A stretch of 64,000 bases of DNA from Cyanobacteria bacterium P01_F01_bin.150. Its GTDB lineage: Bacteria > Cyanobacteriota > Cyanobacteriia > CAKZMO01. The notes below the pieces were generated by a model. The model did no database searches. It was not told the origin of the DNA and worked only from the letters and a program-made list of their open reading frames with translations. The translations under genes and the position numbers were made by a program. Location: the NCBI GenBank assembly GCA_039189765.1, contig JBCCYL010000001.1, forward strand, positions 125,020-189,019. The letters run 5' to 3'. Within the stretch, counting starts at the first letter, position 1; each line of letters begins with the position of its first letter. This document shows positions 343 through 46,414 of the stretch, in pieces.

Positions 343-1740
343 ATGCCAGAACTTAGTATTACAGCCGATCCTTTAATTCTTATTGAAGATGAAGGAACCA
401 CAACAACCATTACCATCAGTTCCAATGAGCCGCTGCCAGAAGGCGGTCTGACTGTTTTAATTGAAACCGGTAAGCCATTTGCGCTGGGAGACTTTAATGC
501 CTTTCAAGCTTCCTTTTCTGGGGGAGTTTTGATCAGAGGCTTATTAGATAATAGCGGCCTTGAGTTTCGCTTGACGAACCAAACGGCAACAATCACCCTT
601 CCGGTATTTGACGATCCGGATCGAACAGCAGATGGAGCCGTAACCGATCCATCAGGTCCGTTAAGAAACGACGATCAGGGCGAAGAACAAACCACTATCT
701 CCATTGGCTCAGGAGAGGGATACACGGTCAGTCCAACAGCAGGTAGCATCACTCTCACCTTTTTTGATACCGCTCCGCCTGCCTCCACGCCTACGCCCGC
801 CCCTACGCCTACACCAGACCCCATATCTACGCCCGCCCCCACACCTACGCCAGACTCTACTCCAGAGCTTAGTATTAGTGCCGATATTCTTACCCTCTTG
901 GAAAATGAGGGCACGGAAACGACGTTTACGATTACGTCTAGTGAGCCGCTACCAGAGGGTGGCTTAGTGATTTCGCTTGAAACCAATAAGCTAGGTGCCC
1001 TAGATGACTTTGTTGGGTTTACCACATCTTCTCAGCTTTCAACCACTGGGGGGGCCGTAATAGAGGTTGCCCAGGATGGCAGCGACTTTACCTTCCGTCT
1101 AGATTCGCAAACGGCAACCATTCGCCTCCCCATTGATAATGATAACGATACGGGGAAAGAGCAGACCACTTTTTCTATTGCTACAGGAGACGGGTATACC
1201 GTTAGTCAAACCTCTGGAGCGGTTACCCTTACCCTTCTAGACATTAATCCACCCACAAATGGAGCCGATCGCATTCGAGGTTCAGACACTGCGGATACGA
1301 TTAGTGGAAATGGCGGTAGAGATATTTTAATTGGCCTTGCTGGCGATGATACGATTACTGGCGGTGCTGGTAGAGACTCTGTAAGGGGCGGACGCGGCAA
1401 AGATTCTCTTTTTGGCAATGGCGGCAACGACAAAATATTTGGTGGTCAGGGGAACGACACCATGTTTGGAGGTGGCGGTAGCGATATTATTGTCGGAAAT
1501 AGAGGTCGTGACACGTTTGTGTTGGAGCAAAAGTCAGGTCGTGACACCTTTAGAGACTTTACAGATAGTCAAGATCGGCTAGGTCTATCTGACGGTCTTG
1601 AATTTGATGATTTAAGCTTTATCGATCGAGGAAAGAATGTTCTGATTAGATCTGGTAATAATGCACTGGCTCTAGTGCGAGGCATCAATGCAGATCAGCT
1701 AACCGAGGCTGACTTTGTAGATGTTGAGAGTCCAATATAA
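343..1740 (+). CDS. Secreted-type repeat protein: two Calx-beta-like modules, Pro/Thr linker, C-terminal RTX (hemolysin-type Ca-binding) nonapeptide repeats; T1SS-substrate-like
   Basis: 465-aa ORF. Modules LIEDEGTTTTITISSNEPLPEGGLTV...TATITLPVFDD occur twice. The linker is PASTPTPAPTPTPDPISTPAPTPTPDSTP. RTX repeats read GGAGRDSVRGGRGKDSLFGNGGNDKIFGGQGNDTMFGGGGSDIIVG. There is no N-terminal signal peptide and the tail ...EADFVDVESPI* is acidic. Confidence 0.75.
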   Translation: MPELSITADPLILIEDEGTTTTITISSNEPLPEGGLTVLIETGKPFALGDFNAFQASFSGGVLIRGLLDNSGLEFRLTNQTATITLPVFDDPDRTADGAVTDPSGPLRNDDQGEEQTTISIGSGEGYTVSPTAGSITLTFFDTAPPASTPTPAPTPTPDPISTPAPTPTPDSTPELSISADILTLLENEGTETTFTITSSEPLPEGGLVISLETNKLGALDDFVGFTTSSQLSTTGGAVIEVAQDGSDFTFRLDSQTATIRLPIDNDNDTGKEQTTFSIATGDGYTVSQTSGAVTLTLLDINPPTNGADRIRGSDTADTISGNGGRDILIGLAGDDTITGGAGRDSVRGGRGKDSLFGNGGNDKIFGGQGNDTMFGGGGSDIIVGNRGRDTFVLEQKSGRDTFRDFTDSQDRLGLSDGLEFDDLSFIDRGKNVLIRSGNNALALVRGINADQLTEADFVDVESPI

Positions 1741-1811
1741 TACCCCATTGGTTATCCCAGCCAATATCGGTTCCCTGTCCCTGATGGGGAACTGTATGGT
1801 TGTCGAGTAAG

Positions 1812-2882
1812 TTACCGCTGGACTGAACCTACAGTTAAGCCAGAAGCCGCGATCGCCCTTTTGCAGTACTCAGGCCGCTGGTCCCCTGCAAATACCTGAC
1901 GATTGAGTCGGTGAGCGACAGCCAGCATCTCAGCATTAGGGAGCCAGGGAAAAATAATGGCGTCATTCGGTTTGGAATAGAGCTTGATCGTCTGTTCCAA
2001 CGATTGTCCCTGAAGCATCGCTTCTGGAAGGATTAAAACCGTTGTCGCCGCATCCACTAACCAGTCATGGTCCCAATCATCGGCAGTAGCAGCAAGGGCA
2101 AAGGCTGCGTCTGGAATCATATTGTAAAATTCGGGGGACGCGGTGTCACCGCAAAATATAAAGTGGCGATCGCCCAATAAGTACCAGCCAGATTGAATAG
2201 CTTTGATCTGAATCGATGGCTGAGGAACTGGGGTTACCTGAGAAGCTAGCGTAGTCTCTATCAGCACATTGCCAACGGCGGCTTCCGAAGCGTGTGGCTG
2301 CGGCTTTGTATCCTGCTGTTGAGTTTTCTTATGGGGTATGACCGCAACGATCTCCGGCTTAGCCGCTGCATGGCTAGATGTGGAGGTTTTGCTATCTTTT
2401 GATATAGGCTGATTTTTCTGAGCGTCTGTCTTCTTTACCTTCTTCTCGCGCAGGGCTTGCCTCAAGTCTTTGTGGGTCAGCTTTTTACCGGATTGGGCCT
2501 TTTCCAGATACTCCTGTCTAACCGTTGGGGGCGTTGAAGGAGCCGCTAACAGATATAGTGCCGACGTAGCAATGTCTAGTTCCTCTAGAGTAGCCTGTTC
2601 GCCAAAGCTCTCATATACATTAATAAAATTGTAAGCAGTGCGTCGACTCCAGCCAAATTCAGCTTTTAGCCAAACGTCAAACTGACCATATTGCAAATGA
2701 TCACGCACACTGGCTAACCGCTTGCCGATTTCCCAAATATCCTGAGCGGTGCGGCGTAATCGATCCTGAATTTCGCCCGTATGCTGACGCACTAAAGCAC
2801 GCTGTGTAGGCTCTAATACCTCATAGTTGAAGTGTGTCACAATGTCTTTGCCACTATTCGCGTTAGTCACGGCCCCTCCCAA
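1812..2882 (-). CDS. Hypothetical protein with N-terminal DUF3102-like domain
   Basis: 356-aa ORF, convergent with the upstream RTX gene. The N-terminal segment (...RLRRTAQDIWEIGKRLASVRDHLQYGQFDVWLKAEFGWSRRTAYNFINVYESFG) matches the DUF3102 pattern as I recall it. The C-terminal part is unassigned. Confidence 0.5.
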   Translation of the reverse strand: MGGAVTNANSGKDIVTHFNYEVLEPTQRALVRQHTGEIQDRLRRTAQDIWEIGKRLASVRDHLQYGQFDVWLKAEFGWSRRTAYNFINVYESFGEQATLEELDIATSALYLLAAPSTPPTVRQEYLEKAQSGKKLTHKDLRQALREKKVKKTDAQKNQPISKDSKTSTSSHAAAKPEIVAVIPHKKTQQQDTKPQPHASEAAVGNVLIETTLASQVTPVPQPSIQIKAIQSGWYLLGDRHFIFCGDTASPEFYNMIPDAAFALAATADDWDHDWLVDAATTVLILPEAMLQGQSLEQTIKLYSKPNDAIIFPWLPNAEMLAVAHRLNRQVFAGDQRPEYCKRAIAASGLTVGSVQR

Positions 2883-3243
2883 TGTCTTCCTAAATTAAGT
2901 TCTACAGATTTTCTTAACCTGACTTTGTAGGTCCCATTGTGTTCTATATATGCATGACTACTGTCCTAAGCGTGTCCAGTCCAGACATATGCTCAACATC
3001 TTCATAATCATCATACCCAAAATGAAGAGTTGACAAAATATACACTCTTGTTGGTTAATGAGAACAATTGCCATCTATCAAGAGTGACGTACATATAATA
3101 GTTAGCGAACAATCGAGGGGAGTTTAAATGGTGAAATTACGGAGTTTAGAGGGAAAAGAGATAAATTTCAGGATAGAGCAAAGTAACTATTTCCCATCTA
3201 ATCCCACTCCCAAACTTGTTTAAATCCGACTGTTTGTTAGCAC

Positions 3244-4008
3244 TTGTTATCTTTTGGCAACCATTTATGTGTGGTGAAACTTGAGTCTATGATCACCCAA
3301 TCTTCTGTTACTGTTGGAGACTTATTGCTAGAGATTGATCACATTTTTATCTGTGTTGATGCTGAACCCGATCCAGGGGCCTTTGCACGACTTGGCCTTA
3401 TATGTTCTGACCAAGTGGTTCGTCGTGAGCAACAGGGCATAGCATCACGCCTCGTTTTCTTTAACAACGTCTACCTTGAGTTTGTGTGGGTAGAGGATGC
3501 CGAACAGGCTGAGATTTATGCCATGCGTTCTGGAATTGACTACCTATCCCGTGCTCAGTGGAAAGTGTCCCAGTATTGTCCATTAGGGGTTGCATTACGA
3601 CACTGTAATGTGAACGACCCAGATCCAGACTTAAATGTTTTTAATCATACGTCAAATGTCGCTGATGGGGTAATCCGACTAGAAGCCAGTAACTTAGTTG
3701 CTCAGTGGGAGCCATTTTGCTACATAATTCCGTCGGCGATCGCCCTCACGACGCTTTTTGCACGCTCTCGTACCATGCAGGGGCAGCTTACTAATCACGC
3801 CTTAGGCATTCAGCGATTGACCCATGCTCACATGTCAATGGAGCATGAGGGACCCTTGACGCCGCCCATGTCCATGCTAGAGAAGGTTGGCATTGTTGAG
3901 TTAACTCAGAATCAGCAATTTGAGCTTATCTTGACCTTTGATCAGCATCGACAAGGACGGTGTCTAGATCTGGTATCTTTAGATATTCCGGTTATCTTGA
4001 GATACTAA
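3244..4008 (+). CDS. Hypothetical protein, glyoxalase-like (VOC-fold) domain
   Basis: 254-aa ORF. The segment LLEIDHIFICVDAEPDPGAFARLGL...GIASRLVFFNNVYLEFVWVED resembles the Glyoxalase_3-type pattern DH...lGF...G.aNrlvfF.n.YLElv.v.d. The start is uncertain; the alternative is ATG 3289 (MITQSS). Confidence 0.45.
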   Translation: MLSFGNHLCVVKLESMITQSSVTVGDLLLEIDHIFICVDAEPDPGAFARLGLICSDQVVRREQQGIASRLVFFNNVYLEFVWVEDAEQAEIYAMRSGIDYLSRAQWKVSQYCPLGVALRHCNVNDPDPDLNVFNHTSNVADGVIRLEASNLVAQWEPFCYIIPSAIALTTLFARSRTMQGQLTNHALGIQRLTHAHMSMEHEGPLTPPMSMLEKVGIVELTQNQQFELILTFDQHRQGRCLDLVSLDIPVILRY

Positions 4009-4011
4009 AGC

Positions 4012-6024
4012 GTGGGGTTTCGTTTTCAGTCTAAACAGAATAATGGTGTTGTGGGTGGGTCGCGTCCACGGCACTCGCCTAAAGCCGATCCCAAAAGCAT
4101 GGATAGGATCGGGTTAATACTGTGGCGATCGCTTCGGCCCTATTGGCTTGATACAGCACAACGATGGTCAGCCTGGGGCCTACTGTTCTTGTTATTACTG
4201 TTATCCATCGGTAGCAGCGCTGCTTTAATTTGGGAAACGATTGAACGGGGCAATATTTTATCTGCCCTAGCGGCCCAAGATGGGCAAAGATTTGCCAGCT
4301 CCATCATCATCTTTATTGGCTTGTTAATTGCGAGTGTTCTGCTTTTATCGTTCAAAACTTACGTGCAAGAACGTTTAGGGTTGAACTGGCGCAACTGGCT
4401 AACGCGACAAACCCTGAGCCAATATCTACAGCCCTATAAGTTCTATCAGCTTCAATATCCCATTGACAATCCTGATCAGCGTATTTCTGATGACCTTAAG
4501 ACGGTCTGTCAGGATTCACTAATGTTTCTCACGATTCTGTTCGACTCAGTGGTCCAGCTTATTGGCTTTGGCAGTGTTTTATGGCTAATTTCTAAGCCAT
4601 TGATGGGAATTTTAGTCACCTATGCAATAGCTGGTACCGTTGTCACTACCCTGATATTTGGTAGAGTCCTACTGGGCATCAACCGTCAGCGATTACAGCA
4701 GGAAGCTGATTTTCGCTATGGATTGATTCGAGTGAAAGAACAGGCAGAGGCGATCGCGTTTTATCAAGGTGCCTCAAACGAGTATGGTCAGGCTAAAATC
4801 CGTTTCCTAAATGCGTATCAAACAGTTCAGCGGCTCATTCGCTGGCAGTTTGGGCTAACCATTTTTCAAAATGGCTACCAGTACTTGACGTTTATTTTGC
4901 CGTTTATCATTCTAGCTCCTCAAATTTTTGCTGGGAACCAGGAAATCGGCACAGTGGTACAGTCCCAAGCCGCATTTGAGCGCATCGGCTTTGCCCTGGG
5001 CTTAGTCATCACCCAATTTGACAAGCTAAGTGCATTTGGAGCCGCAGTTAAGCGCTTAGATGGACTAAACAAAGGTTTAGAAAAGGCAGAAATAAAGGCA
5101 GAAATAAAGGCAGAAATAAAGGCAGAAGGCAGAAGGCAGAAGGCAGAAGAACCCACCCCTAGCCCCTCCCAGGAGGGGGACCGGAGTAGCCCAACGCCCC
5201 AACGCCCAACGCCCAACGCTCAACTCTCCAACTCTCCAACTCTCCAACTTCCCAACTTCCCAACGCCCCAGCTCTCCAACGCCCCAACGCCTCAACGCCC
5301 TATCCAAAATCTAAAATCTAAAGTTATTTCCTTTCAAAATTTAACGTTGACGACGTCGGCTAAAACGCTGGTGCGTGATTTATCCTTTGAGGTTGCGGAA
5401 GGGCGATCGCTTCTTATCACTGGAGCCAGTGGTGTGGGTAAAAGCTCATTGGTGAGGGCGATCGCAGGGTTATGGCAGTCAGGGGAAGGAGTGATCGGGG
5501 TTCCGCCCCGAGAGCAGCTCTTGTTTTTACCCCAGCGCCCCTATATGCCGTTGGGTGATTTGCGCTATCAGCTACATTATCCCCATCACCATGTTCAAAA
5601 ACAGACTGAGACATTTGACATCCGGTTATCGAACAAGCAGCTATCTAACGAGCAAATATCTAACCAGCGATTAAAAGATATTCTTGTTCAAGTTAATTTA
5701 GCCCATCTAACTGATTATTTAGGCAGTACAAATTCCGTATCTGCCCAAGAGTACGAGGATATGGACTGGTCACAAGTTCTTTCGCTTGGCGAACAACAAC
5801 GTCTTGCCATTGCCCGTGTTGTCCTTAATCCTCCGGTCTATGCCATCCTCGATGAAGCCACCAGTGCCCTCGACGAAGCCAACGAAGCCAACGTCTACCA
5901 GCTTCTGCAAACTCTCCCTACTACGCTTATCAGCATTGGTCATCGCCCCTCACTCACTGCTTATCACCAAACCCTCCTCACCCTCAACCCAGACGCTACC
6001 TGGACCTTAAAATCTATCCCGTAG
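4012..6024 (+). CDS. ABC transporter ATP-binding/permease protein, TMD-NBD half-transporter of the SbmA/BacA/ABCD (ABC_membrane_2) type
   Basis: 670-aa ORF. The N-terminal region contains hydrophobic, transmembrane-like stretches (LLFLLLLLSIGSSAALIW, IIIFIGLLIASVLLL). Walker A is GASGVGKSS, the ABC signature LSLGEQQRLAIARVVL, Walker B AILDEATSALD and the H-loop IGHRPSL. Its paralogous relationship to the next gene supports a start at ATG 4099 (MDRIGLILW...) rather than 4012. Confidence 0.85.
   Translation: MGFRFQSKQNNGVVGGSRPRHSPKADPKSMDRIGLILWRSLRPYWLDTAQRWSAWGLLFLLLLLSIGSSAALIWETIERGNILSALAAQDGQRFASSIIIFIGLLIASVLLLSFKTYVQERLGLNWRNWLTRQTLSQYLQPYKFYQLQYPIDNPDQRISDDLKTVCQDSLMFLTILFDSVVQLIGFGSVLWLISKPLMGILVTYAIAGTVVTTLIFGRVLLGINRQRLQQEADFRYGLIRVKEQAEAIAFYQGASNEYGQAKIRFLNAYQTVQRLIRWQFGLTIFQNGYQYLTFILPFIILAPQIFAGNQEIGTVVQSQAAFERIGFALGLVITQFDKLSAFGAAVKRLDGLNKGLEKAEIKAEIKAEIKAEGRRQKAEEPTPSPSQEGDRSSPTPQRPTPNAQLSNSPTLQLPNFPTPQLSNAPTPQRPIQNLKSKVISFQNLTLTTSAKTLVRDLSFEVAEGRSLLITGASGVGKSSLVRAIAGLWQSGEGVIGVPPREQLLFLPQRPYMPLGDLRYQLHYPHHHVQKQTETFDIRLSNKQLSNEQISNQRLKDILVQVNLAHLTDYLGSTNSVSAQEYEDMDWSQVLSLGEQQRLAIARVVLNPPVYAILDEATSALDEANEANVYQLLQTLPTTLISIGHRPSLTAYHQTLLTLNPDATWTLKSIP
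5077..5310. repeat. In-frame block of heptamer/octamer/12-mer tandem repeats (STRR-like) inside the ABC transporter linker
   Basis: GCAGAAATAAAG occurs 3 times, GGCAGAA 4 times, CCCAACG-type and CAACTCTC/CAACTTCC units follow, plus a ~58-nt unit (5145-5202) nearly identical to 6026-6083. The block translates as EIKAEIKAEIKAEGRRQKAEEPTPSPSQEGDRSSPTPQRPTPNAQLSNSPTLQLPNFPTPQLSNAPTPQRP without breaking the frame. Confidence 0.7.
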
Positions 6025-6184
6025 ACAGAAGAACCCACCCCTAGCCCCTCCAAGGAGGGGGACCGGAGTAGCCCAACTCCCCAGTTTTTCCGCTCCCCAA
6101 CTCCCCAACTCCCCAACTCCCCAACTCCCCAACTTCAAAATCCAAAATCCAAAATCCAAAATCCAAAATCGACCCAACCCTCCC
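6025..6184. repeat. Intergenic STRR-like tandem repeats (CCCCAACT x5, AAAATCC x5) plus second copy of the ~58-nt GAAGAACCCACCCCTAGCCCCTCC.AGGAGGGGGACCGGAGTAGCCCAAC unit
   Basis: Read directly from the sequence. The unit contains the hairpin CCCCTCC(NAGG)AGGGGG. Heptameric short tandemly repeated repetitive (STRR) sequences are characteristic of cyanobacteria. Confidence 0.7.
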
Positions 6185-8056
6185 ATGACTCATCCCCACC
6201 GCCAACCCTTCAAGCTTCAATTTCTTCAACGGCTATGGCAAGTGGCTCGGCCCTACTGGACCTCCTCCGAAAAATGGCGGGCATGGGGCTTACTTTTACT
6301 TTTGCTTTTACTATCTATTGTCAGTGCCGGGCTATTGGTTGTTGTTAGTATTTTTCTAGGGGATGTCACCTCTGCATTGGTGGCCCAGGATAGCGATCGC
6401 TTTTGGCAATCGGTTTTTATATTTATCGGTGTCATCCTAGTTGGCGTGCCACTTTTATCACTAAAAATCTTTGTTCAAGCCCAGCTCAGTTTGTATTGGC
6501 GTCGGTGGCTTACCCAAGAAATGCTACAGCGGTACTTTAGCAATCGCCAATTCTATAAACTCAGCCAGGTCAATCATCACTACGATCGCACCTCTTCTGA
6601 TATTGCGGCCAATATTGACAATCCTGATCAGCGCATTGCTGAAGACATTAATACATTTACAGAACAAGCCCTATTTTTTCTAATTGCTTTTCTGGACTCA
6701 TGCCTCCAGCTTATGGCCTTTGTGGGTGTACTCTGGGCAATTTCTAAACCGTTAATGGCCTTTTTAGTCGCCTATGCAATGGGGGGAACGATGATTACAG
6801 GCCTTGTTTTTGGCCGTAAACTAATCTATCTCAATGTGGAGCAGCTAAAACGAGAGGCTAATTTTCGTTTTGGGCTGGTGCGAGTGCGTGAAAATACGGA
6901 GGCGATCGCCCTTTACGACGGTCAAGCCCAGGAGCTATCTATCCTCCAACAGCGATTCCAGTCGCTATTTGATAATTTTAATCATCTAATCCGCTGGCAG
7001 CTGGGTCTCAACTTTTTTCAAAACGGCTACCAGTATCTAACGTTCCTTCTTCCTGCCCTAATTCTGTCTGGCCCCATCCTGAATGGCACGATGGAAGTGG
7101 GCGTACAGTCTCAAGCGGTGATTGCCTTCCGCAGCATTCTGATTGCCCTTGCGGTTATTATTCAACAGTTTGAGAAGCTAGCAGAATTTATGGCTAGGGG
7201 CGATCGCCTCCACGCGTTTCGGAACGCTATGCTCCCACCTCATCTGTCCTTCCCTATAAGTCCTTCGGACCGGCAGATAGGGGATCGGCAAACAGAGGAC
7301 TCGGAGAAACTGGAGATTCGTCATAAGCCCAGCCGAACGGAGGTCATCCAAACGATTGAAGCTCCCTATATCGCCCTTGACCATCTCACGCTTTACACGC
7401 CCGATCGCTCTACCGAACTGATTACCGATTTATCACTCACCGTGGAACCGGGGCAATCGTTGCTTGTTCAGGGTCCCAGTGGTGTGGGTAAAAGTTCATT
7501 ACTGCGGGCGATTGCAGGGCTTTGGGAGACGGGATCAGGGACGATTAGAAGACCGCCTTTAGACCAAATCGTCTTTTTACCCCAGCGACCCTACATGGCA
7601 TTGGGAACCCTGCGCCAACAGTTGATGTATCCTGTCACTCCATCTGCTTTAACTGGGGATGAATCTGTGGATGAAGAGCTGCTCCAGCATATTCTTGAGC
7701 AGGTGAACCTACCATTTCTAAAAAAGCAGTATGATGGATGGGACTCTATTGAGAACTGGTCGCAGATATTATCGGTGGGTGAGCAGCAACGGTTGGCGAT
7801 CGCTCGTCTTCTCGTAACACGATCTTTACAAACTTCAATCCCAACCGACAATCAGACTAAGTCTCTGATATCACCAATAGTTACCAGCACCTATGCGATT
7901 TTAGATGAGGCCACCAGCGCCCTGGATCAAGACAATGAAGATCGACTCTATCAGACTCTATTTGAGCATTCCATTACATATATAAGCGTAGGACATCGGC
8001 CTAATTTACAGCGCTATCATCACCATATTTTGACGTTGGATAGGCAAGAACCCTAA
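6185..8056 (+). CDS. ABC transporter ATP-binding/permease protein, paralog of the preceding gene (likely heterodimer partner)
   Basis: 623-aa ORF with the same architecture. Walker A is GPSGVGKSS, the signature LSVGEQQRLAIARLLV, Walker B AILDEATSALD and the H-loop VGHRPNL. It has an unusual ~26-aa insertion (TRSLQTSIPTDNQTKSLISPIVTSTY) between the signature and Walker B, and a long linker insertion between the TMD and NBD. Confidence 0.85.
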   Translation: MTHPHRQPFKLQFLQRLWQVARPYWTSSEKWRAWGLLLLLLLLSIVSAGLLVVVSIFLGDVTSALVAQDSDRFWQSVFIFIGVILVGVPLLSLKIFVQAQLSLYWRRWLTQEMLQRYFSNRQFYKLSQVNHHYDRTSSDIAANIDNPDQRIAEDINTFTEQALFFLIAFLDSCLQLMAFVGVLWAISKPLMAFLVAYAMGGTMITGLVFGRKLIYLNVEQLKREANFRFGLVRVRENTEAIALYDGQAQELSILQQRFQSLFDNFNHLIRWQLGLNFFQNGYQYLTFLLPALILSGPILNGTMEVGVQSQAVIAFRSILIALAVIIQQFEKLAEFMARGDRLHAFRNAMLPPHLSFPISPSDRQIGDRQTEDSEKLEIRHKPSRTEVIQTIEAPYIALDHLTLYTPDRSTELITDLSLTVEPGQSLLVQGPSGVGKSSLLRAIAGLWETGSGTIRRPPLDQIVFLPQRPYMALGTLRQQLMYPVTPSALTGDESVDEELLQHILEQVNLPFLKKQYDGWDSIENWSQILSVGEQQRLAIARLLVTRSLQTSIPTDNQTKSLISPIVTSTYAILDEATSALDQDNEDRLYQTLFEHSITYISVGHRPNLQRYHHHILTLDRQEP

Positions 8057-8704
8057 AGGAAAAGAGAGTAAAAGAAGGTGCCATCAGCTGTTTTTCTCCC
8101 AAAAAAATGTTATTTAATTTACATATTCTTTAAAAAGGGGACTTCCTCCCAGGAAATACGGATGTTATCATGATCCTCAGCAACATGATTGGTAGTGATT
8201 CTCAGTAAGAATCACTTTTAGAGAGGTATCGATCGCTTTTTCCGAGCTTTTTTGTAGTTCTCGTATATGTGGAAGGCTTACTCAGGCAGTTTATCTACCT
8301 GCTCTAGCTCTTTATTTATGCTTGGTACTTGTAAGAGCAAAAGAATGAGCTTTGAATGAGCGCTAATGGGATCGGATAGTTTGTTATCCCCAAATCGGAG
8401 GAACGTTGTTTTTTCCGAACCGTCATCCTTGAGAGAGTAGAGCGCGGTGAAAATGGATTGTATCTGTTGATGCTTATGTCCGAGTGTCGCAGTGTAATGG
8501 CGTGTGTCTGAGAAGATATCGCGCTGTTTGACATATTTAGTTCTTGGGAATAAGGTCTGCGAGCTCTGGTGGCGTCCTTAGTTTGAACGCTTCTGATGGC
8601 TGTGTGTGTCTGGAGCAATCGCCTCGTCATCACTAATCCCCCAAGAAGCATTAGAGGTCCGAGTATCAGTTCAGATTTGTGTTATTGCAAGAATAGGAGT
8701 AGCA

Positions 8705-11700
8705 ATGCCAGTCGTTAGTTTAAGTACAAGTACCAATTTCAGCGGGTCAGAAAACGCCCTAATTGAAAATGAAGGTACAGAGCTAACTCTCACATTTAGC
8801 CTTGATGAGCCAGCGCCTGCTGGAGGGCTAAAGGTCTACGTTGACAGTGATGTTCCAGAAATCCTAAATCGCCTCAATCTAATTTTGTTGGCGTTTGACC
8901 CTTCCAGATTATCTAATCTGACTGCCAGTCAAGCAGCCTTTACAGATTTTTCTAACAGTGGATTCACCGCCACCATTAATGCGGGTGCCACTGAAGCTTC
9001 GGTCACTGTTCCGGTTTTCGATACAAATGAGTCGACCCCTGATCCCTTTTTCCCGGATACTTATGACGGATTAACGACAGCGACCTTTACGCTTAAGACG
9101 CGAGACCAGATCGACTCCGTTGACGAAACAAGTCCCAGAGGGAATACCGGAAACGATTTGGCGGCGATAGAGAACGATGGCGTTCCCGTAAGTGACTACA
9201 CCATTGGTACCGCGTCCAGCACCGTTCTATTTGTAGATGATGTCAGTCAGCTGCCTTCTGACCCCACACCCACACCCCCTCCCACACCCCCTCCCACACC
9301 CCCTTCGCCAGCGAACGGCTACGATGAAGCGACCAGTGGCGATATTTCTGATAATCCTTCTAATCCCATTGAGCTGGATCTTGCAGAAGGAACGACTCAA
9401 TTGTCTGCAACGACAGGCGGTGGTGATCAGGAATATGTAACCGTAACGGTTCCTGATGGCACTCAGCTTGATTCCATTACCGTGGACTCCTATTCCACTG
9501 GGGATGTGGCCTTTATCGGTGTTCAGGAAGGCAGCACCTTTACTGAGCCACTAGATAATAGTGCTGATGTGGGTGAGCTGCTTGGCTATGCCTTGTTTGA
9601 TAATGGCGACGAAGGGACTGACATTCTAGACAACATCGGTAGAGGTGATGGCGCAGAAGGGTTCACAGGTCCTTTGCCCAGCGGTACCTACACGTTTGCC
9701 CTTCAACAGTTGGGTGCCAGCAGCGACTACACTCTAGACTTTAATGTCTCTGAAGCGTCTGCTCCAACCCCCACTCCTCCTCCCACTCCAACCCCTACCC
9801 CTCCTCCTTCTGGTCCTCCGGTCGTCAGCTTTGAAGCTGTCCCGGCAACGATTTCTGAAGAAGCCCCCGCTGAGGATCGGCTGCTAAGGCTGGAGTTTTC
9901 TGTTGCTGGAGAAATTCCTGAAGGTGGTCTAGTAGTTCTCTTCGAAAACCTCTTTGGCATTACCGATCAGGCCGATAGCGAAGCTGAAGGAGCCGCCTTT
10001 GAAGGTTTAGGTCTAGCACCACCTTTTGACCAGGAAAATAATATTATCGGTATTCGCCTATTAGAAAACCAAGCTGCAATCCAGCTACCGATGATTAACG
10101 ACTTGGTTGAGGAGACAACCACGTTTGACTTCCGCTTGCTTGAGGGCGAGGGCTATGAGCTTGATCCGGACCAGAATGCAACGCTGTTCACCATCACTGA
10201 CGACAATGGTGGTCCCGGTGTTGGTCCGACCATCGGCTTATCGGTATCTGAAACCAACCTGGCAGAAGGTGATACCTTTACGGTCAACTTTGCAGTTGAT
10301 GGCACGATCCCAGCCGGGGGCATTGATGTCCTAGTAACAAGCGATGAAAGTGTTGCGGGTCCCCTTGGGCAGTTTGAATTGTCTAATCTTGAGACACTAC
10401 AGCTCTCTGGTGTTAGCAACCTGCGCCCCGGAGACGACCGTGGTCAAAGCTTTATTGCCACTATCACTGAGGCTAATGCATCAATTACCCTATCTGTCTT
10501 TGATGACATTATTGCAGAGGAACCGGTTGACATTCCATTTATTTTAGCCAACGGTGAGCTTTACGAAGTAGACCCCAACGCGGCTGACGTAACCCTAACC
10601 ATTTCTGATGAACCCCAACCCGTTGGTCCTACGGTTGGTATTTCCCTTGACAAGACCGACGCAGTTGAAGGGGATTCAGTCACTCTATCGTTCAATGTTG
10701 AAGGGGATATTCCTGACGGCGGCCTTACGGTTCTAGTTAACGACACCACTAGTGCTCGCACTGGTGCCAGAAGTCTAACTGAATTTGATATTGCCGGAGT
10801 TCAGCTCAGTGATGGCATTGATGGATTCCCCATTGCGGCTGAAGGCGACAGCGGTTTCTTCGTTACGTTAACTGCTGCAAATGCCAGCATCACTCTACCC
10901 GTAATTGATGACGGTGCAGATGAGGATGAGGCGCTAGAGATGTTCACCTTTGAGGTCATTGATGGTGAAGCCTATGAAGTCAGTGCTGATGCGGGTAGCG
11001 TAACGCTAAATATCAGCGATGCGGCACCTGTTGCCCCAACGGTCAGCCTGAGCACTGATGTGACTACGCTGATTGAATCCGAAGGGACGATTGTCACCTT
11101 TACCCTAGAAACATCCGGCACTCTTCCTGAGGTTGTCCTGGATGAGGATGGTGACTATGTCTCCGGTGGGTTACCTGTAACATTGCAGATTGATTCGGCT
11201 CAACTTGAGTGGTTCTTTGACTTTGACAACAACAGCCGTCCACGGACAAACGCTGAAACTGGTAGCTTCAATGAGGTTCTAGTCCTTGGCGATAACTCCA
11301 CAGGTATTGCTGGCGGTCGCTTGATTGGTACATTGCTGCCACCCGATTTCAACACGGTGGAGCTGACTCTCACAGAGAGCACTGCGTCCTTCCAGTTTGA
11401 AGTCTTTGACGACGTATTTGCTGAAGCGAATGAGGACATTACGTTCACCTTGTTGGGTGGTGATGGCTACGAAGTCGCAGCAGACGCCACTCCTGTAACC
11501 CTGACCCTACAGGATAGTCCTGATGGAACAATTGACGGCACGACTCCTGTTGTTAGCCTATCCGTCGATAGCACTACTGTTGCAGAGGGAGACGCTCTAA
11601 CGGTTACCTTTAACGTGACTGGCGATATTCCTGACGGCGGTCTTCTTGTCTTTGTTGACAGTAATGCCTCTGGAGTACTGGGTGAGTTTAATCCAGACGA

Positions 11701-14700
11701 AGTTGTATTCACAGGCTTGGCGGCACCTCCAGGACCGGATACAGACGCGGGGGGTTTTGCTGCATTGATCAGTGAGAGCACCGCAACAATTACCCTACCG
11801 GTCTTTAAGGATGGTTTGGGAGAAGGGGTAGAGACTTACACCTTCAACATTGTGGATGGTGAAGCCTACGATCCCGATCCGGCAGCTAGCGAAGTGACTC
11901 TTTCCATTGAAGAGACACCTCCAGTGATTTCCGTTGATTTAGTGGGCGGCGTATTTGACGGCAGTGATTTGCTGACGCCTAATCTGGTTGAGGCTCCCGA
12001 AGCAGGCACACCCGTTTTGAGCGTTGTGGTTCAGTCTGATGCGCCTATCCCTGAAGAAGGATTGGTTGTTGATATCAATACTGATCTTGCCGATATCACT
12101 GAATTTGTTGAAGGCTCTAACTTTGTCCCCACAGCCTTTGGTGGCGAAGTCCTCGGTGCTATTTATGATGCCGACGGCAATGCAACTGGCTTGACGGTCA
12201 GAATGGATGCGTTTAATACCGTTATTAACTTTGTCGGTGGCTTAGGCCTAGAGGGCGACGGCCCCCACGAGGTTAACTTCTCTGTGGAGCCAGGCGCAGG
12301 CTATACTCCGGCGGCTGATAGTGCTGGCATTACGGTCTATGACACGATTGACCAGGTTCCAGCGGTTACATCAGTTCCTGAAGTTGGCATCAATATTGCG
12401 GAGCAGCGTCGTCCCCTTTCCGAAGGTAGCGGTGCAATTACCGTGGACTTCACCGTTACCGGTGACATTCCTGATGAGGGCGTTATCGTTTATGTCAGCA
12501 CTGGAGAACGTGCTGGATTGGGCGATTTTGACTTGCTAAATGCAGGGGTTGTTGGCGGTACGTTCCCACCTCCCGATGGAAATGCAGGCGGCTTTTACTT
12601 CAAGATCACCGAGCCGACAGCTAGCATCACCTTGCAAGCGGCTGTGGATGATGAGATTGAAGGGATTGAAGACGTTAACATTGCGATTCAGCCTCTATCT
12701 GGCTACACCATTGCTGATGGTGCGGGTGAAGCAACTGCACTGCTTCGCGAGGGCCGAGGCTCTGAGATTCAGATCAGCCTGGACGGGTCTCCCGATGTTC
12801 TGGTTGAGGAAGAGGGCACGGTTGCAACCGTTGAGCTGAGCTTGAGTGCTCCCCCTCCTGCGGAAGGGATAGAGGTCACGATTGATGCGGCTGAAATGAT
12901 TGAGTTTGATCCTCAGACTCTAACCGTATCAGATGGTGTGATTCCGGTAAGCGCAAATGAAGACAACACTAGCTTCACTATTCTTGTCCAGCAGCAGGAC
13001 GTTAGCCTGAGCGTTGCGATCGCCAACGACGGTGAAGCAGAAGGTCTTGAAACCGCCACCTTTAGTTTGGCAGAGGGAGAGGATTATCAAATCGATCCCG
13101 AGGCTGGGTCCAGCACCTTTACCATTGTGGATACTGCCGCTGATATTCCGGCTGCGCCTATCACTGAGAGCACCCGTAGCTCCCGTGATTCCATTGGTGA
13201 CACCATTGCAGAGGCTGAATCCACTGGTTTAAGTGCTGACAACAGCCGCGTCACGGTTCAAGCCGCTATTAACGGTAACTTCTTTAATGGCGATCGGGTT
13301 CGCACCGATACCACTGAAGATGTGGATATGTATTCGGTGGAGCTATCTGCGGGTGATGTATTGCGTCTTGATATTGATGCTCAAATCAACAGTGATGAAT
13401 CTCCGGATACGGTGCTGCGGCTATTTGACGCCGATGGAAACCAGCTTGCTCAGAGCGATGATGATTTTGCTCCCGATGAGCTGTTTGCTCCTGGTCGTCG
13501 CGATTCCTACATCGAGTTTACGGCTGAAACTGCTGGAACTTACTATGTGGGCGTCAGCAGCTTTGGTAATGGTCTCTTTGACTTCTGGACTAACGACGAC
13601 GGCACGTTTGACAACGATTTCTACGATCCAAACGTAGCGGGTAGTGGTGCCGGTCGTAGCGACGGTCCATACACCCTAAATCTGTCCCTTAATGAAGCAC
13701 CTAATGCAGCAGAAACTGAGATTCCTGCCAGCACGGGTGAAGGGCCAACGGTTTCTCTCTCAGCCACAGCTGCCACCTATGACAGCAGCGACAATCTGAT
13801 TGCTAGCACTTTGGTTCAGTACACGCCGGAATTTAGAAACGCCTCTATTTTGACCCTGAGTCTTGATGTTGATGGTGAAATCCCTGAAGGCGGTGTTGAG
13901 ACCTACATAACCACTGACGTTGACCTTTCTACCCTCTTTAGTACTAGCCAACCCTTCAGCTCAGAGGGCGTAGAAGTGCTTGGGGCAGTGTACGACGATG
14001 CAGGTGCCCCCGTTGGCTTGAAGGTGAATCTCACCACGGCAAGTGGCTTTATTAACCTCAACCTCATTGATCCTGAGGAAGCACCCACCGATGGTGAAGG
14101 GACGATTACCGTTACCCTGGAGCCTGCAGCTGGCTATACCGTGGGTGAAGGGACCTTCTCTGCCACTATCTACGACACGCTAGACGATGTACCTGATTTG
14201 CCAACGGTACCCACGGTTAGTATCTCCGTTAGTGAGACAACGTTAATTGAGTCTGAGGGCAATACTACAACCCTTACTTTTGAACTCAATGAGGCACCTC
14301 CAGCGGGTGGATTGACGATCAACGTCGACAGCGGTGTGCGTGCAGCCTTGGGTGAGTTTGACGTGTTTAATGCTGAGATTGAGGGCGGTAATTTCCCCTC
14401 CCCCAACTTCCGCGCCAGCGGTTTCTTCTTCACCATGACGGAGCAAACCGCAACTATCACCCTAGCCGCCTTTGACGAAACCACTAATCCAGAAATCTCG
14501 GCTGAAAATGCACTAGAAGGAATTGATGAGTTTACGTTTACCGTGCAGCCAGGTGCTGGCTATGCCATTGCTCCCAATTCCAATGCGGTGACCGTAACCA
14601 TCGCGGATAATCCTGACTCGGTTGTCCTGCCTGATGACGATGGTAACGACGACGGTGGCTCTGATGCTGGCGGTTTGACTGAGAGCGAATTTAACGACAC

Positions 14701-17700
14701 CATTGCAGATGCGATGGACACTGGTCTTAGCTCGACGAGCCCAATCTTTAGAGTTAATGGTGAGATTGATAACAGTCGTCAGACTCGCAACTTTGTTGAT
14801 GCTACTGAGGACGTTGATATCTACGCCATCACTCTAGAGGCTGGCCAAGTGGTCATTCTAGACGTAGATGGCGGCGGTACTGGCGATGCGGGTGTAGAAG
14901 GGTCCTTGCTTGATAACATCCTGCGGGTGTTTGATGCAGATGGCAACGAAGTCGCTATCAATGAAAATGGTGGTGCACCAGATGAAGTCTTCCAAGCTAA
15001 CGGTGATGCTTATCTGGAGTTTGAAGCACCTGCGGCGGGTACCTACTATGTGGGAATTAGCAACCTAGGTAACAACTTCTACGACCCCAACGTTCAAGCT
15101 AGCGGCAGCGGCTGGGAGTTTGAAGATCGCTTTGAGCCTGGTCCTTACAGATTTACGGCAACTCTGAAAGGGGCTGTTGCTAATGATAACGACAGCGTTA
15201 GCGGCAACGATGACACCATCGCCAACGCTCAGACTCTAGACCTAACGGCAGACAACCCCAACATCTTGGTTGAAGCGGCGTTTGAACAGCGCTATTTGGA
15301 TCGTAGCAACACCGTGGATGCCACTGAAGATGTGGATATGTTTGCGGTCCAGCTACAAGCGGGTGATGTTATCACTGTCGATGCGGACTCTGTACTGGTT
15401 GACTTTGACGGCTTCCCCTCCGGCCCTGCTCCTGATATCACTATCTTTGACGCCAATGGCGACAGAGTGGTAATTGGTCAAGATGAGAATGGTGAAGATA
15501 TCGTTGCTTACTCCCGTATCGGTGGTGCTCCTGATGAGGCCTTTATTGCTGGACGCGATGGCTATATCGAGTTCACAGCCCCTGAAACCGGCACGTACTA
15601 CATCGGTGCATCCCAGTATCGTAACGATAGCTACGATGCAAACGTGGTAGGCAGTGGTTCCGGTGCGGTCTTTAGTCCTCGTTTCGGCGTTCTAGCGGGT
15701 GGTGAATACACTCTAAACATTCAGCTCAACCCCGAAGGGTTTACGGGTGACGTGTACGAAGCATTCGACGGTACCCCTGCGGATGATGCACCTACGGTAA
15801 GTTTCACGACGACTGGTGGAACCTTTGCCCGTGGTGATGTCCTTGTCTCTGACCAGATTATTGAGTCTGAGGATGCGGGTACGGCAATCCTTGACTTTAC
15901 CTTCAATGTGGATGGTGAAATCCCTGAAGGTGGTCTAGAGGTGTTCGTCACTAGCGACACTGACATGACTACCTACTTCGAGGGATTGTCTTCTAACCCA
16001 CGGGTGGCAGTCGGTGGGGAAATCACTGGTGGTCTGTACAACACGGCAGGCGAACTGATTGGCTTCAAGGCAGTATTAACGGCCAGCAATGCCCGGTTCC
16101 CCTACAATGCGGCCCATCGTGAAGATGATGACCCTACGGCACCAGAGACGCTGACCTTCTCCTTGGCAAGTGGTCCTGCTTACCAGGTAGATGACTCCTC
16201 TTCCTCTTCTGCGGTTACCTTCTACGACGACCTGACGCAAGTTCAGGCCAGTGGTGGCCCTGTCCCTGAAGTGGCGATCGCGGTCGATACCAACGAACTG
16301 ATTGAGTCCGAAGGCACAGAATTGACGCTGACGGTGAACGTCACAGGCGACATTCCTGCCGAAGGTTTGTTGATCGCCATGGACGGTCAAGTCCCTGGCA
16401 CAGAAGATTCAGCACGTGGCTTCCTGGGTGAGTTCGACGTATTCAACGCCGAAGTAACTGGTGGTCCATTCCCATCTCCCAACGGCAGCGCCAGCGGCTT
16501 CTTCTTCCGCGTCTTTGAGAACACTGCAACGATTAAGCTACAGGTATTTGATGAGACCACCAATGATCAGATTGCACCGGAAGATGCCCTGGAGGGTGTA
16601 GAGGACTTCACCTTCTCTGTATTGGCAAGCGATGCTTACACCATCGACGCAACCGCCAGTTCGGTAGACATCACCATCAAGGACAACCCTGATTCTGTGC
16701 CTTTGACAGATGATGGTGGCGATGGTGGCAACGGTGGTGACGGTGGTGCAACCGATGGTCCTATCACCGATAACGATGGTCGTAGCACTATTGATGACAC
16801 CATTGAGACCGCTAATCCGACTGGTTTGAGTCCAAATCAGACTGAGGTTAGTATTGAAGGCTCCATTGCTGTTCGCTGGCGGAATGCGGCGGAACAACGG
16901 GCTGACAACACTGAAGACGTGGATATGTACTCCTTCGACTTGGCTGCGGGTGAAACCGTATCCATCGATGCGATGTCTGTACCGTTTGAGCTAGATGGCA
17001 CCACCCAAGTGACGGCTCCTACGCTGCGAGTATTCAACGCTGCAGGTGAAGAGCTGGCCATCAGCGGTAGTGAAGTAGGTGGTCCTGTGGTAGCAGACCC
17101 CTCCCTTGAGTTCACTGCAACTGAAGCGGGTACCTACTATGTGGGTGTCTCCCAGTATCTGAACGATAACTATGATCCAGCTGTAAATGCCAGTGGTGAT
17201 GGTGTTCAGTTAGTGGATGAAGGCATTAGTCCTGGAGAATACACGCTCAATCTGTCATTGACCACTGATCAGCCAGCGGTTCCTGTTATCAGCATCAACA
17301 TTGAGCCAGACGTGCTGTCTGAGGAAGATGCCGATGATACGTTGGTTAGCGTCGGATTTAACGTTGATGGCGAGATTCCAGAGGGTGGCCTATCGGTGCT
17401 TGTTACCGGCAGCGTCAATATCCTTGACCAGGCAGATGGCGCACGGGACATCGTGTTTGATAATGCGGTTCTTGGTGAGTTCTTCGATCCTGCTACTGGT
17501 ACTTTTGAAGTCATTGTTTCCGATAACAGTGGAGCAATCATTCTGCCTATCTTGAACGACATTATTCAGGAAGCGGATGAGGATTATACCTTCACCATCA
17601 TTGAGAACGATGGGTCCATCGACTCCACCTATGCGGTCGATGCAGATGCTAGCACTGATACCTTCACATTGATTGATGGTAACGGTGGCCCTGGCGTTGG

Positions 17701-26957: not shown

Positions 26958-27620
26958 ATGATTGTTGAAATTCCTAATGTTTTTTCTCAAAATGAAGTAA
27001 AAGATATTGTTGATAAACTTTCTGCCTCAGAATTTATTGATGGAAAGAAAACGGCGGGTTGGAATGCTCGGGCTGTTAAGAATAATGAGCAGCTCAAAGC
27101 CAGTGATCCTGCTGCTGCTGCTCTCAAGGAGATGGTGAAAACGAAGCTCAACAAAAACTTTCGTTTTCAGTCAACGGTTCGCCCAAAGAATATCCATACT
27201 CTGCTGTTTAGTCGGTACGAAGTCGGCATGTCCTATGGGCGACATAATGACAATGCAATGATGTCGGGGAAATGGCGAACTGATGTTTCCTTCACCATCT
27301 GGCTAACTGCCCCTGAAACCTACAAGGGAGGAGACTTAGTTATTGAAGGCCCAAGTCGTGAATCATCCTATCGTTTAGCCGCAGGGTCAGCCATTACCTA
27401 TCCATCCTCAACTCTCCACCGTGTTGATCCAATTACTGAGGGAAGTCGATGGGCGATCGTAGGCTGGGTCCAGAGTTGGATAAGAGACCCGGCCCATCGC
27501 GAAATTCTATATGATTTGGATACAGCTCGTCGCTCCATTTTTGATACCCATGGCAAAAATAAAGAATTTGATTTGGTGTCTAAGAGCTTAACTAATCTAC
27601 TGCGTAGCTGGATGGAGTAA
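26958..27620 (+). CDS. PKHD-type hydroxylase, Fe(II)/2-oxoglutarate-dependent dioxygenase (YbiX/PiuC family, prolyl-4-hydroxylase-related)
   Basis: 220-aa ORF. The HxD motif reads YGRHNDNA and the distal His is in SSTLHRVDP. Overall length and layout match the ~225-aa YbiX family. Confidence 0.7.
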   Translation: MIVEIPNVFSQNEVKDIVDKLSASEFIDGKKTAGWNARAVKNNEQLKASDPAAAALKEMVKTKLNKNFRFQSTVRPKNIHTLLFSRYEVGMSYGRHNDNAMMSGKWRTDVSFTIWLTAPETYKGGDLVIEGPSRESSYRLAAGSAITYPSSTLHRVDPITEGSRWAIVGWVQSWIRDPAHREILYDLDTARRSIFDTHGKNKEFDLVSKSLTNLLRSWME

Positions 27621-34690: not shown

Positions 34691-34732
34691 TTGACGTTTA
34701 TTGATTCTAGTAATTTACAGGACCCTACTTCC

Positions 34733-35790
34733 ATGACCCTACCCGATCGCGTGATTGACGCCCTTGATACGGCCCTTGCGGAAAACCTGCCCCCAGAAGT
34801 CCCTGGTGCTGCCGTCGCTATCCTTACCCCTGAAGGGGAATGGTTTGGTGCTGCTGGGCTATCAGATTTAGAAAACAATGTTGCTTTAGCACCGGACGAT
34901 CGCTTCGAGGCAGGCAGCATCACCAAAACCTTTGTCGCCACTACGCTACTGCAGCTCGTTGAAGAAAATCAACTTGAACTAGACGACACCCTGACCGAGT
35001 GGCTGCCACCCACGATTACCGATCTGGTTCCCAACGCCAGCGATATTACCATTGAGCAAATTTTGGGTCACACCAGCGGCATTGCCGATTATTTGGATGG
35101 TTTGACCGCCCAAGCTACCCTTAACCCAACCCTGTTTTTACAACAGTGGGAACCCGAACAGCTTATTAGCTTTATTGATGGCGTCGATCCATTATTCGAT
35201 CCGGGAACGTCTTGGGAATATTCCAACACCAATTATATTTTGGCTGGGGAAGTTATTGAGGCGGTGACTGGGAATAGCTATGGGCAGGAGATCCGCGATC
35301 GCATCCTCGACCCCGTCGGTCTCGACAACACCTTTGTATTTGGGGAAGAAGACATTCCTGGCGACTACATTAGAGGGTACTGGGACTTTAACGGTGACGG
35401 CACCCTGGATAACCTACGCGTTACTGACCTGTCCTGGACCGGATCGGCGGGGTCGATTATTTCCAACACTGAAGACCTGGCTGACTTCTTTGAGGCGTTA
35501 CTGGTGGACCAGACATTACTCCAGGACGAGACCCTGGACGAAATGCTGGATACCATTCCCGTTAACTCCCCCAACTATGATTCCTATGGTTTAGGGATTG
35601 GAACGTTGGAGTCACGGAACCGCTTCTGGTACGTTCACCGGGGGCAGACGTTAGCGTTTCGTTCTAATCTTTGGTATTCTCCTCTGGAAGACATTACCTA
35701 TGTGGAGCTGCTGAATGGTCGCTCCAGCAGTAATTTAGTCAGCGATCTGCTGCCCACCTATCGCCGCACCATTCAGCCTCCCACCCCCGA
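34733..35790 (+). other. Beta-lactamase-family (PF00144-type, class C/esterase/DD-peptidase-like) domain
   Basis: SITK (SxxK active-site serine), YSN (YxN) and TGS box motifs sit at the appropriate spacing. Confidence 0.6.
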
Positions 35791-46287: not shown

Positions 46288-46302
46288 AAAGCTTTCGATA
46301 AG

Positions 46303-46329
46303 AGCGGGGGGCTACCTCCCGCTTTTTTT
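46303..46329 (+). terminator. Rho-independent terminator after gene 39841
   Basis: AGCGGGGGG-CTAC-CTCCCGC followed by TTTTTTT. The same AAAAGCGGGAG/CTCCCGCTTTT design follows genes 46466 and 55391. Confidence 0.6.
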
Positions 46330-46363
46330 CGATGGGTTTCGTTCTAATGCGAAACAAAATTAA

Positions 46364-46414
46364 CGGTGATGTGGGAGCGACGCGCCCACATCATTCGATT
46401 AAAGTTGATACCCG
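46364..46414. repeat. Conserved palindromic intergenic element, copy 3, flanked by 9-bp direct repeat GAAACAAAA
   Basis: GAAACAAAA[TTAACGGTGATGTGGGAGCGACGCGCCCACATCATTCGATTAAAGTTGATACCCGC]GAAACAAAA. The stem is GATGTGGG/CCCACATC. Confidence 0.5.

Follow-up and report, generated by a model that had tools for sequence, protein, structure and literature searches.

The window analyzed here is a 64,000-nucleotide stretch of Cyanobacteria bacterium P01_F01_bin.150 (contig JBCCYL010000001.1, positions 125,020 to 189,019). It carries two adjacent genes for ATP-binding cassette (ABC) half-transporters, ABC1 and ABC2, followed on the same strand by the genes for nine giant proteins. A preliminary description of this DNA, made from its sequence, offered two possibilities for the pair: a dedicated exporter that recognizes a conserved C-terminal domain (CTD) of the giants, or importers that have nothing to do with the giants and adjoin them by chance. 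The gene neighborhoods of 12 other pair-bearing loci favor the second possibility. We conclude with moderate confidence that the pair is a cytoplasmic-membrane importer belonging to a TonB-dependent, probably iron-chelate, uptake route and is not the secretion apparatus of the giants. The pair and the genes downstream of it are arranged as follows.

4012-6024, + strand: ABC1, the upstream half-transporter, 670 amino acids, with matches to PF06472, PF05992, and PF00005
6185-8056, + strand: ABC2, the downstream half-transporter, 623 amino acids, with matches to the same three families
8057-8704: non-coding gap of 648 nt between ABC2 and giant 1, with room for a separate promoter
8705-19315, + strand: giant 1, 3,536 amino acids, with its terminal domain at 18809-19312
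20202-62398, + strand: giants 2 to 8, with a dioxygenase gene (26958-27620) among them; giant 2 occupies 20202-26669, giant 4 34691-38743, giant 7 52071-54872, and giant 8 55391-62398

ABC1 and ABC2 are the sole transporter genes in the window, and no gene for a membrane-fusion protein (MFP) or a TolC-like protein was found in the 64 kb, both as first described. The pair had been placed at the head of a gene cluster. It does lie directly upstream of the giants, but RTX proteins that share the giants' N-terminal module are encoded further upstream, and the pair sits inside the region.

ABC1 and ABC2 both fuse a transmembrane domain (TMD) to a nucleotide-binding domain (NBD) and are half-transporters of the ABCD/SbmA-BacA type (PF06472). 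Their alignment of 660 columns shows 42% identity, in line with their description as paralogs, and both are encoded on the giants' strand. The Pfam model ABC_membrane_2 (PF06472) scores 154.5 bits with ABC1 and 180.0 bits with ABC2 (cutoff 24.4), and SbmA_BacA (PF05992) scores 33.3 and 54.8 bits, respectively (cutoff 24). The best NCBIfam model, TIGR00954 for the peroxisomal ABCD type, gives 256 and 279 bits, which is below its full-length cutoff of 919. The closest solved structures are ABCD1 (E 5e-90), ABCD4 (E 8e-53), and Rv1819c (PDB 6TQE, E 5e-50), and the homology is full-length. ABC2 is also 27% identical to Escherichia coli YddA over nearly its whole length (E 2e-53), and the motif NPDQRIAEDI is common to both. 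The pair belongs to an already known transporter family. Nearly 8,000 homologs of ABC2 with E < 1e-30 were found among 8,000 candidates scored, and those at ~50% identity come from Nostoc, Crocosphaera, Calothrix, Fischerella, Gloeocapsa, Nodularia, and others. A protein from the P01_F01_bin.150 assembly itself (P0065) matches ABC2 at 100% identity. Some homologs carry the JGI label 'vitamin B12/bleomycin/antimicrobial peptide transport system.'

The ATPase motifs are intact. Both halves keep the Walker A motif, the signature, the Walker B motif with its catalytic glutamate, and the H-loop. These read GASGVGKSS, LSLGEQQR, AILDEATSALD, and IGHR in ABC1 and GPSGVGKSS, LSVGEQQR, AILDEATSALD, and VGHR in ABC2, which has a canonical NBD. 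Between the signature and the Walker B motif of ABC2, at approximately residues 544-565 (7814-7880), there is an insertion of ~20 residues, RSLQTSIPTDNQTKSLISPIVTS, that is absent from ABC1 and from E. coli YddA.

Neither protein is of the HlyB type, in agreement with the preliminary description. The TMD begins within ~40 residues of the N-terminus in both, and no Pfam match to Peptidase_C39 or a C39-like domain was found in ABC1 or ABC2. Models for the ABC proteins of type I secretion systems (T1SS; PrtD, LssB, HlyB) align with the NBD only and score far below their cutoffs: TIGR01842 gives 66 and 53 bits (cutoff 510), TIGR03375 gives 58 (693), and TIGR01846 gives 44.5 and matches ABC2 only (726). 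The window resembles a T1SS locus of the HlyB/PrtD/LssB kind in that half-size TMD-NBD ABC genes stand beside genes for large acidic proteins without signal peptides. T1SS ABC proteins differ from the window pair in their PF00664-type TMD, in the C39 or C39-like domain that many of them carry, in the adjacent MFP gene, and in a conserved linkage to the substrate gene.

The homologs of ABC1 align only from approximately residue 36, so translation may really begin with the ATG at 4102 and not the GTG at 4012. The ABC1 coding region contains perfect or near-perfect tandem repeats at 5082-5300 (+ strand) with units of 12, 7, and 8 nt, the 8-nt unit being repeated 14 times. They encode a low-complexity insertion of ~75 amino acids in the linker between the TMD and the NBD. 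The reading frame of ABC1 would shift if this array gained or lost a 7- or 8-nt unit. Further repeats, five copies of CTCCCCAA and five of CAAAATC, lie in the spacer between ABC1 and ABC2 (6093-6170).

Orthologous pairs were sought by a genome scan with ABC2 alone (4 loci), a metagenome scan with an alignment of orthologs, and individual protein look-ups. The metagenome scan returned mostly distant single-copy homologs (39-46% identity), and five of its loci were pair loci. Besides the window, 12 pair-bearing loci were compared (L002, L003, L005, L009, L011, L013, L015, L017, L025, L097, L098, and L099/L014). A neighbor-joining tree separates the upstream from the downstream members as two clades; nine loci each contribute one member to each clade, and ABC1 groups with the upstream members of cyanobacterial pairs. 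This two-clade topology shows that the pair is ancient and argues that it is an old cyanobacterial heterodimer, with the window pair orthologous to the others. The gene orders at these loci are listed below, where TBDR denotes a TonB-dependent receptor and NRPS a nonribosomal peptide synthetase.

L003 and L011: ABC, TonB, ExbB, ExbD, ABC; ABC genes convergent
L009, L013, and L097 (Aphanothece hegewaldii): TonB, ExbB, ExbD, Suc_Fer-like, DUF3102, ABC, ABC; L009 and L097 adjoin NRPS tailoring genes
L099/L014 (Crocosphaera watsonii): DUF3102, ABC, ABC, Suc_Fer-like, MFS_3, then MacB/FtsX, ATPase, NRPS
L015: PepSY_TM, flavodoxin, ABC, ABC, ExbD, ExbB, TonB-like
L098 (Calothrix parasitica): AMIN-TBDR, AraC regulator, flavodoxin, PepSY_TM, flavodoxin, ABC, ABC, ExbD, ExbB, AMIN-TBDR, Peripla_BP_2, FecCD
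L017: ABC, ABC, TonB
L002: RTX, RTX, Suc_Fer-like, DUF3102, homolog of the 254-residue open reading frame upstream of ABC1, ABC, ABC, contig end
L005: TBDR, MFS_3, RTX, RTX, Suc_Fer-like, DUF3102, homolog of the same 254-residue frame, ABC, ABC, giant
L025: the pair without a marker gene

The neighborhood of the pair is conserved. TonB- or iron-related markers (TonB/ExbB/ExbD, receptors, ferredoxin, DUF3102, flavodoxin, PepSY_TM, MFS_3, NRPS) are present in 11 of the 12 loci. Eight loci (L003, L009, L011, L013, L015, L017, L097, and L098) have TonB and/or ExbB-ExbD genes no more than 10 kb from the pair, and the number with a linked TonB, ExbB/ExbD, or TonB-dependent receptor gene rises to nine of 12, the receptor being found in L005 and L098. 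DUF3102 and the Suc_Fer-like ferredoxin occur together in half of the loci (6 of 12). This thioredoxin-like ferredoxin is of the CctD type, which is reported to recur in cyanobacterial siderophore-transport loci (bioRxiv 10.64898/2026.07.30.741596). No MFP or TolC-like gene adjoins the pair in the orthologous loci, and a giant lies downstream of it in one of the 12, L005, where the ABC proteins are 65-70% identical to those of the window. Searches with tblastn using the eight terminal domains of the giants gave no match in 92 ABC loci or in three further isolate-genome loci. Literature searches found no description of a PF06472/ABC_membrane_2 pair with a TonB module in cyanobacteria.

A single paralog from the ABC2 clade has a different setting in the lineage of Nostoc sp. 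PCC 7120 (L007/L008, 1-21674). Its gene overlaps the end of an FtsX/DevC-like gene that itself follows an MFP gene, and no separate DevA-type ATPase gene lies between the MFP/FtsX and ABC genes at this locus. The locus is situated between genes for giant cadherin/PPC-RTX proteins and an NRPS cluster, and its MFP-FtsX-ABC_membrane_2 arrangement is unusual.

Characterized members of the family move small molecules or short peptides (PMC12003926), and transport by the window pair would, by analogy with these relatives, be directed inward. BclA was found in 21 of 31 cyanobacteria surveyed (28 proteins in total), and BclA from Synechococcus elongatus and Cyanobacterium aponinum complements Sinorhizobium meliloti bacA in the uptake of gentamicin and NCR247 (PMC12003926). 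The window pair is like cyanobacterial BclA in its SbmA/BacA/ABC_membrane_2 TMD fused to an NBD, in its phylum, and in belonging to a family common there (PMC12003926). Unlike BclA, it consists of two diverged paralogs from two ancient clades, which implies a heterodimer, and as far as literature searches showed, its conserved TonB/iron neighborhood is absent from the published description of BclA.

The E. coli yddA operon also encodes a TonB-dependent receptor (YddB) and a protease (PqqL) (also PMC5095587). For FusD, the YddA counterpart in Pectobacterium, a role in iron import through the inner membrane has been proposed (PMC5095587). The window pair shares full-length homology with YddA/FusD, and in most of the orthologous loci the pair is, like YddA/FusD, linked to genes of TonB-dependent uptake and iron acquisition (PMC5095587). 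YddA and FusD differ in that each is encoded by a single gene, presumably acts as a homodimer, and has an M16 protease and a specific receptor as partners. No M16 protease is encoded at the cyanobacterial pair loci, where the partners are instead DUF3102, the thioredoxin-like ferredoxin, flavodoxin, and PepSY_TM. Rv1819c handles cobalamin and is a characterized importer (PMC3603451). Rv1819c and ABCD4 offer a further likeness in that an exporter-type fold moves hydrophilic cargo (cobalamin, bleomycin) to the cytosol without a binding protein; they differ in being homodimers with no TonB context, and the Rv1819c host has no TonB-dependent outer-membrane uptake. The siderophore transporters YbtPQ and IrtAB are heterodimeric, exporter-fold half-transporter pairs that import iron chelates without a periplasmic binding protein. 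Their TMDs belong to the PF00664 (ABCB-like) family and not to PF06472, and the likeness to the window pair is one of concept only.

In the mechanism we propose, ABC1 and ABC2 would form a heterodimeric ABCD/BclA-type transporter with a type IV fold in the cytoplasmic membrane. A hydrophilic substrate would first cross the outer membrane through a receptor energized by TonB-ExbB-ExbD, and the pair would then import it without a periplasmic binding protein. The neighboring genes suggest that the substrate would most probably be an iron chelate or a siderophore-related compound. The adjacency of the pair to the giants would be specific to this lineage and due to chance. A further proposal, which we hold only tentatively, is that the pair, the DUF3102 protein, and the thioredoxin-like ferredoxin might together carry out, without a binding protein, the inner-membrane step in the TonB-dependent uptake of iron chelates by cyanobacteria, a step that would be so far undescribed.

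The genes upstream of the pair, and one gene among the giants, bear on this proposal.

88-294, + strand: end of a gene for an RTX protein, the first gene of the window
343-1740, + strand: complete gene for an RTX protein of 465 amino acids, with four RTX stretches matched by Pfam and also four GGxGxD motifs
1812-2882, - strand: DUF3102 protein (PF11300 match), divergent from the ABC operon
2883-3243: divergent promoter region, 361 nt, 63% AT, with two Fur-box-like 19-mers
3244-4008, + strand: open reading frame (ORF) of 254 amino acids whose resemblance to the Pfam family Glyoxalase_3 is weak and sub-threshold
26958-27620, + strand: YbiX/PKHD-type Fe(II) dioxygenase (NF003974, 291 bits), between giants 2 and 3

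The divergent arrangement of DUF3102 and ABC genes recurs in L002, L005, L009, L010, L013, L014/L099, and L097. The DUF3102 protein, of ~330-355 amino acids, is 46-66% identical across at least seven cyanobacterial loci in which it is divergent from the pair, and it could be a regulator or an accessory factor of the transporter. The stop codon of the 254-residue ORF lies 3 nt before the ABC1 ORF, and the two are probably co-transcribed. L002 and L005 have a homolog of this ORF (41% and 62% identity, respectively) immediately before ABC1. Scans of 1700-9000 for sigma-70 promoters and terminators gave no excess over shuffled controls.

The Fur-box-like 19-mers in the divergent promoter region (2997-3015 and 3054-3072) each match the E. 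coli-type Fur box at 13 of 19 positions. Across the whole 64 kb there are 12 matches of this quality, two of them in this region and three within the 5.7 kb of intergenic DNA. The sites are a weak hint that the pair may be under iron regulation. The YbiX/PiuC-type Fe(II)/2-oxoglutarate dioxygenase family is Fur-regulated and receptor-linked in proteobacteria, and the dioxygenase gene, which stands alone between giants 2 and 3, would add another hint of iron in this region.

Several points weigh against an importer of iron chelates. ABCD-type proteins also act as exporters, and the direction of transport cannot be read from sequence. The MFS_3, MacB, and NRPS neighbors would fit siderophore export equally well, and the tested cyanobacterial BclA proteins may not be orthologs of this pair. 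No gene for TonB, ExbB/D, or a receptor is present in the window, which covers 3.2 kb upstream of the operon, and the Fur-box-like sites are weak. The adjacency of the pair and a giant persists in a close relative, as the L005 giant is an ortholog of giant 1 (78% identity over 2,670 residues). The Nostoc PCC 7120 paralog lies ~4 kb downstream of giant cadherin/PPC-RTX proteins that contain modules of giants 1 and 8. Finally, no secretion system for the giants was found in the window.

An importer without a specific role in iron uptake is rather unlikely. In this alternative, the pair would be a broad BclA/Rv1819c-like importer of peptides, antimicrobials, or cobalamin, consistent with the SbmA_BacA matches of both proteins, the gentamicin and NCR247 uptake by cyanobacterial BclA in a heterologous host (PMC12003926), the handling of cobalamin by ABCD4 and Rv1819c (PMC3603451), and the B12/bleomycin/antimicrobial peptide label on some homologs. 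The conserved neighbors are instead iron-stress genes (flavodoxin, PepSY_TM, the CctD-like ferredoxin, AMIN-TBDR, FecCD, MFS_3), and the conserved heterodimer differs from the homodimeric BclA and Rv1819c. Rfam searches of the window and seven orthologous loci gave no match to any family, the cobalamin riboswitch included.

It is less probable again that the pair exports a siderophore, another NRPS product, or a similar small molecule whose biosynthesis is encoded nearby. In favor of export, L007, L009, L097, and L099/L014 have NRPS or NRPS tailoring genes no more than 10 kb from the pair or its paralog, the type IV fold is the classical fold of exporters, and substrates of the eukaryotic ABCD proteins are carried from the cytosol. 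The NRPS loci, however, already encode MFS_3 (EntS-like) and MacB/FtsX proteins with an ATPase as dedicated exporters, and no NRPS gene is within reach in the window, L003, L011, L015, or L098. The most constant neighbors of the pair are TonB, ExbB, and ExbD, which energize uptake, and the characterized bacterial relatives import (PMC12003926; Rv1819c, PMC3603451).

The remaining alternatives concern the giants, eight of which are complete (933 to 3,536 amino acids); the ninth runs off the end of the window. All have a predicted pI of 4.05 or less, as low as first described, with 17-21% aspartate plus glutamate, 1-3% lysine plus arginine, and no cysteine in ~16,000 residues. They were also said to lack N-terminal signals, and a hydropathy calculation (not SignalP) detected no hydrophobic segment in their first 70 residues. 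The maximal ORFs of seven of the eight complete giants start 0-54 nt after an in-frame stop. In giant 1, the ATG at 8705 is 108 nt from the stop; an alternative GTG at 8606 has a stop 9 nt upstream, and the possible 33-residue extension is mildly hydrophobic and not signal-like. ORFs of at least 150 codons on the opposite strand all fall within the giants and were taken as spurious.

Domains recognized in the giants include PPC, cadherin-like/Big_9, beta-lactamase-like, GDSL lipase, histidine phosphatase, and Spondin_N. The PPC and cadherin-like repeats of the preliminary description are among them, but the Calx-beta repeats it also named were found at sub-threshold scores only. The enzyme domains are beta-lactamase/transpeptidase-like in giants 4 and 7, GDSL lipase in giant 8, and a weak histidine phosphatase match in giant 2. 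There is no HemolysinCabind match in the giants, and 0-4 GGxGxD motifs are scattered in each. The giants thus share three traits of type I substrates (no signal peptide, acidic, free of cysteine) but not the GGxGxD repeats near the C-terminus. An N-terminal stretch of ~590 amino acids is 91% identical between giants 5 and 6 (39841-51967), and giants 3, 5, and 6 have long blocks in common at 53-55% identity. The terminal domains are most alike between non-adjacent giants (82% for giant 4 versus giant 8). These similarities suggest that recent duplication together with module shuffling or gene conversion may have shaped the giants.

The conserved CTD of the preliminary description is real. All eight complete giants end in one domain of ~165 amino acids, 58-78% identical to the copy used as query, in which the motifs NPTGGDxDL, ISEDGDSxDPDD, and GSGA are conserved. 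The copies lie on the + strand at the following positions.

18809-19312
26163-26666
33851-34354
38237-38740
45781-46284
51461-51964
54366-54869
61892-62395

The domain has no significant match in Pfam (best E 0.024) or NCBIfam. AlphaFold, run with a 44-sequence alignment, predicts a beta-sandwich (pLDDT 92.9, pTM 0.88). Foldseek against the PDB matched it to carbohydrate-binding modules (the Ape1 CBM, CBM32, CBM6, CBM29) and to lectinolysin (E 5e-5 to 1e-3, TM 0.44-0.49). These matches are moderate, and 'CBM-like' would denote a fold class and not a family assignment.

A profile search of 1.84 billion representative proteins returned 5,010 carriers of the domain at E ≤ 0.001 and 1,136 at E ≤ 1e-30. 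Among the best 150 carriers, 114 have two to six copies, and the best copy lies within 20 residues of the C-terminus in 50. The carriers include proteins with Sec signals, proteins with Bacteroidota-type tails for the type IX secretion system (T9SS), and RTX proteins in which an internal domain is followed by a separate RTX/T1SS C-terminus. Small proteins with a Sec signal and PEP-CTERM, and proteobacterial proteins with the domain at the N-terminus, are also among its homologs. No ABC_membrane_2 gene is within reach at three domain-carrying loci (L093, L094, and L095). With its multiple copies, its internal and N-terminal positions, and its presence in Sec, T9SS, PEP-CTERM, and RTX proteins, the domain is extracellular cargo and not a signal for a dedicated pump. 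It is probably a Ca-dependent binding or anchoring module. A Pleurocapsa metagenome-assembled genome (L094, 8091-10675) has a domain of this type at the N-terminus of two GDSL lipase genes, and the domain may target hydrolases to surface glycan. A T9SS-type or PEP-CTERM-type sorting role for the domain in the giants was rejected, because the giants have neither a Sec signal nor a PEP-CTERM tail.

A dedicated exporter of a new, MFP-less kind that reads the terminal domain to move the giants is very unlikely. The case for it is that the pair lies on the same strand directly upstream of nine acidic, cysteine-free giants without signals or RTX repeats, that the window has no other transporter gene, that the order of the pair and then giant 1 is kept in L005, and that the Nostoc paralog is near homologous giants. 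The pair occurs widely without the domain beside it, however, and the domain occurs without the pair nearby: the 11 other pair loci have neither giants nor CTD and carry TonB/ExbBD and iron genes instead, and L005 is too close a relative of the window to count as independent evidence. The terminal domain is folded and is used across the Sec, T9SS, PEP-CTERM, and RTX routes. Separate occurrence of the pair and the domain was named in the preliminary description as a ground for refuting the exporter, and it is what the gene neighborhoods show. The lack of an MFP or outer-membrane partner in the window, the NBD-only matches to T1SS models, the 648-nt gap before giant 1, and the small molecules or short peptides moved by characterized relatives (PMC12003926) also argue against it. 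Least probable is a variant in which the ABCD-type heterodimer is the translocase of an MFP-less route for the giants and the pump has another use where it is found with TonB/ExbBD, as the absence of RTX repeats from the giants and the recurrence of the adjacency in L005, and loosely near the Nostoc paralog, might be taken to suggest.

The giants are extracellular proteins that probably exit through a type I secretion system whose genes lie elsewhere. The RTX proteins of the window imply that the organism would have such a system. The product of 343-1740 looks like a classical type I secretion substrate in sequence, with an acidic/hydrophobic C-terminus, and its N-terminal module is the same as that of the giants. 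Two small RTX proteins with this module are encoded upstream of the DUF3102/ABC unit in the window, in L002 (1029-2950), and in L005 (2627-4606). The RTX pair precedes a Suc_Fer-like gene in L002 and L005, and the window has no such gene.

We therefore advise against annotating or pursuing the ABC pair as the secretion system of the giants and against treating the 'CTD' as a secretion tag. The terminal domain belongs to a large family of extracellular beta-sandwich modules, carried by ~5,000 representative proteins, that is without a Pfam or NCBIfam model. The inner-membrane step of TonB-dependent iron acquisition in cyanobacteria is poorly defined, and a candidate for it is the conserved module of the pair, DUF3102, the CctD-like ferredoxin, and TonB-ExbB-ExbD.

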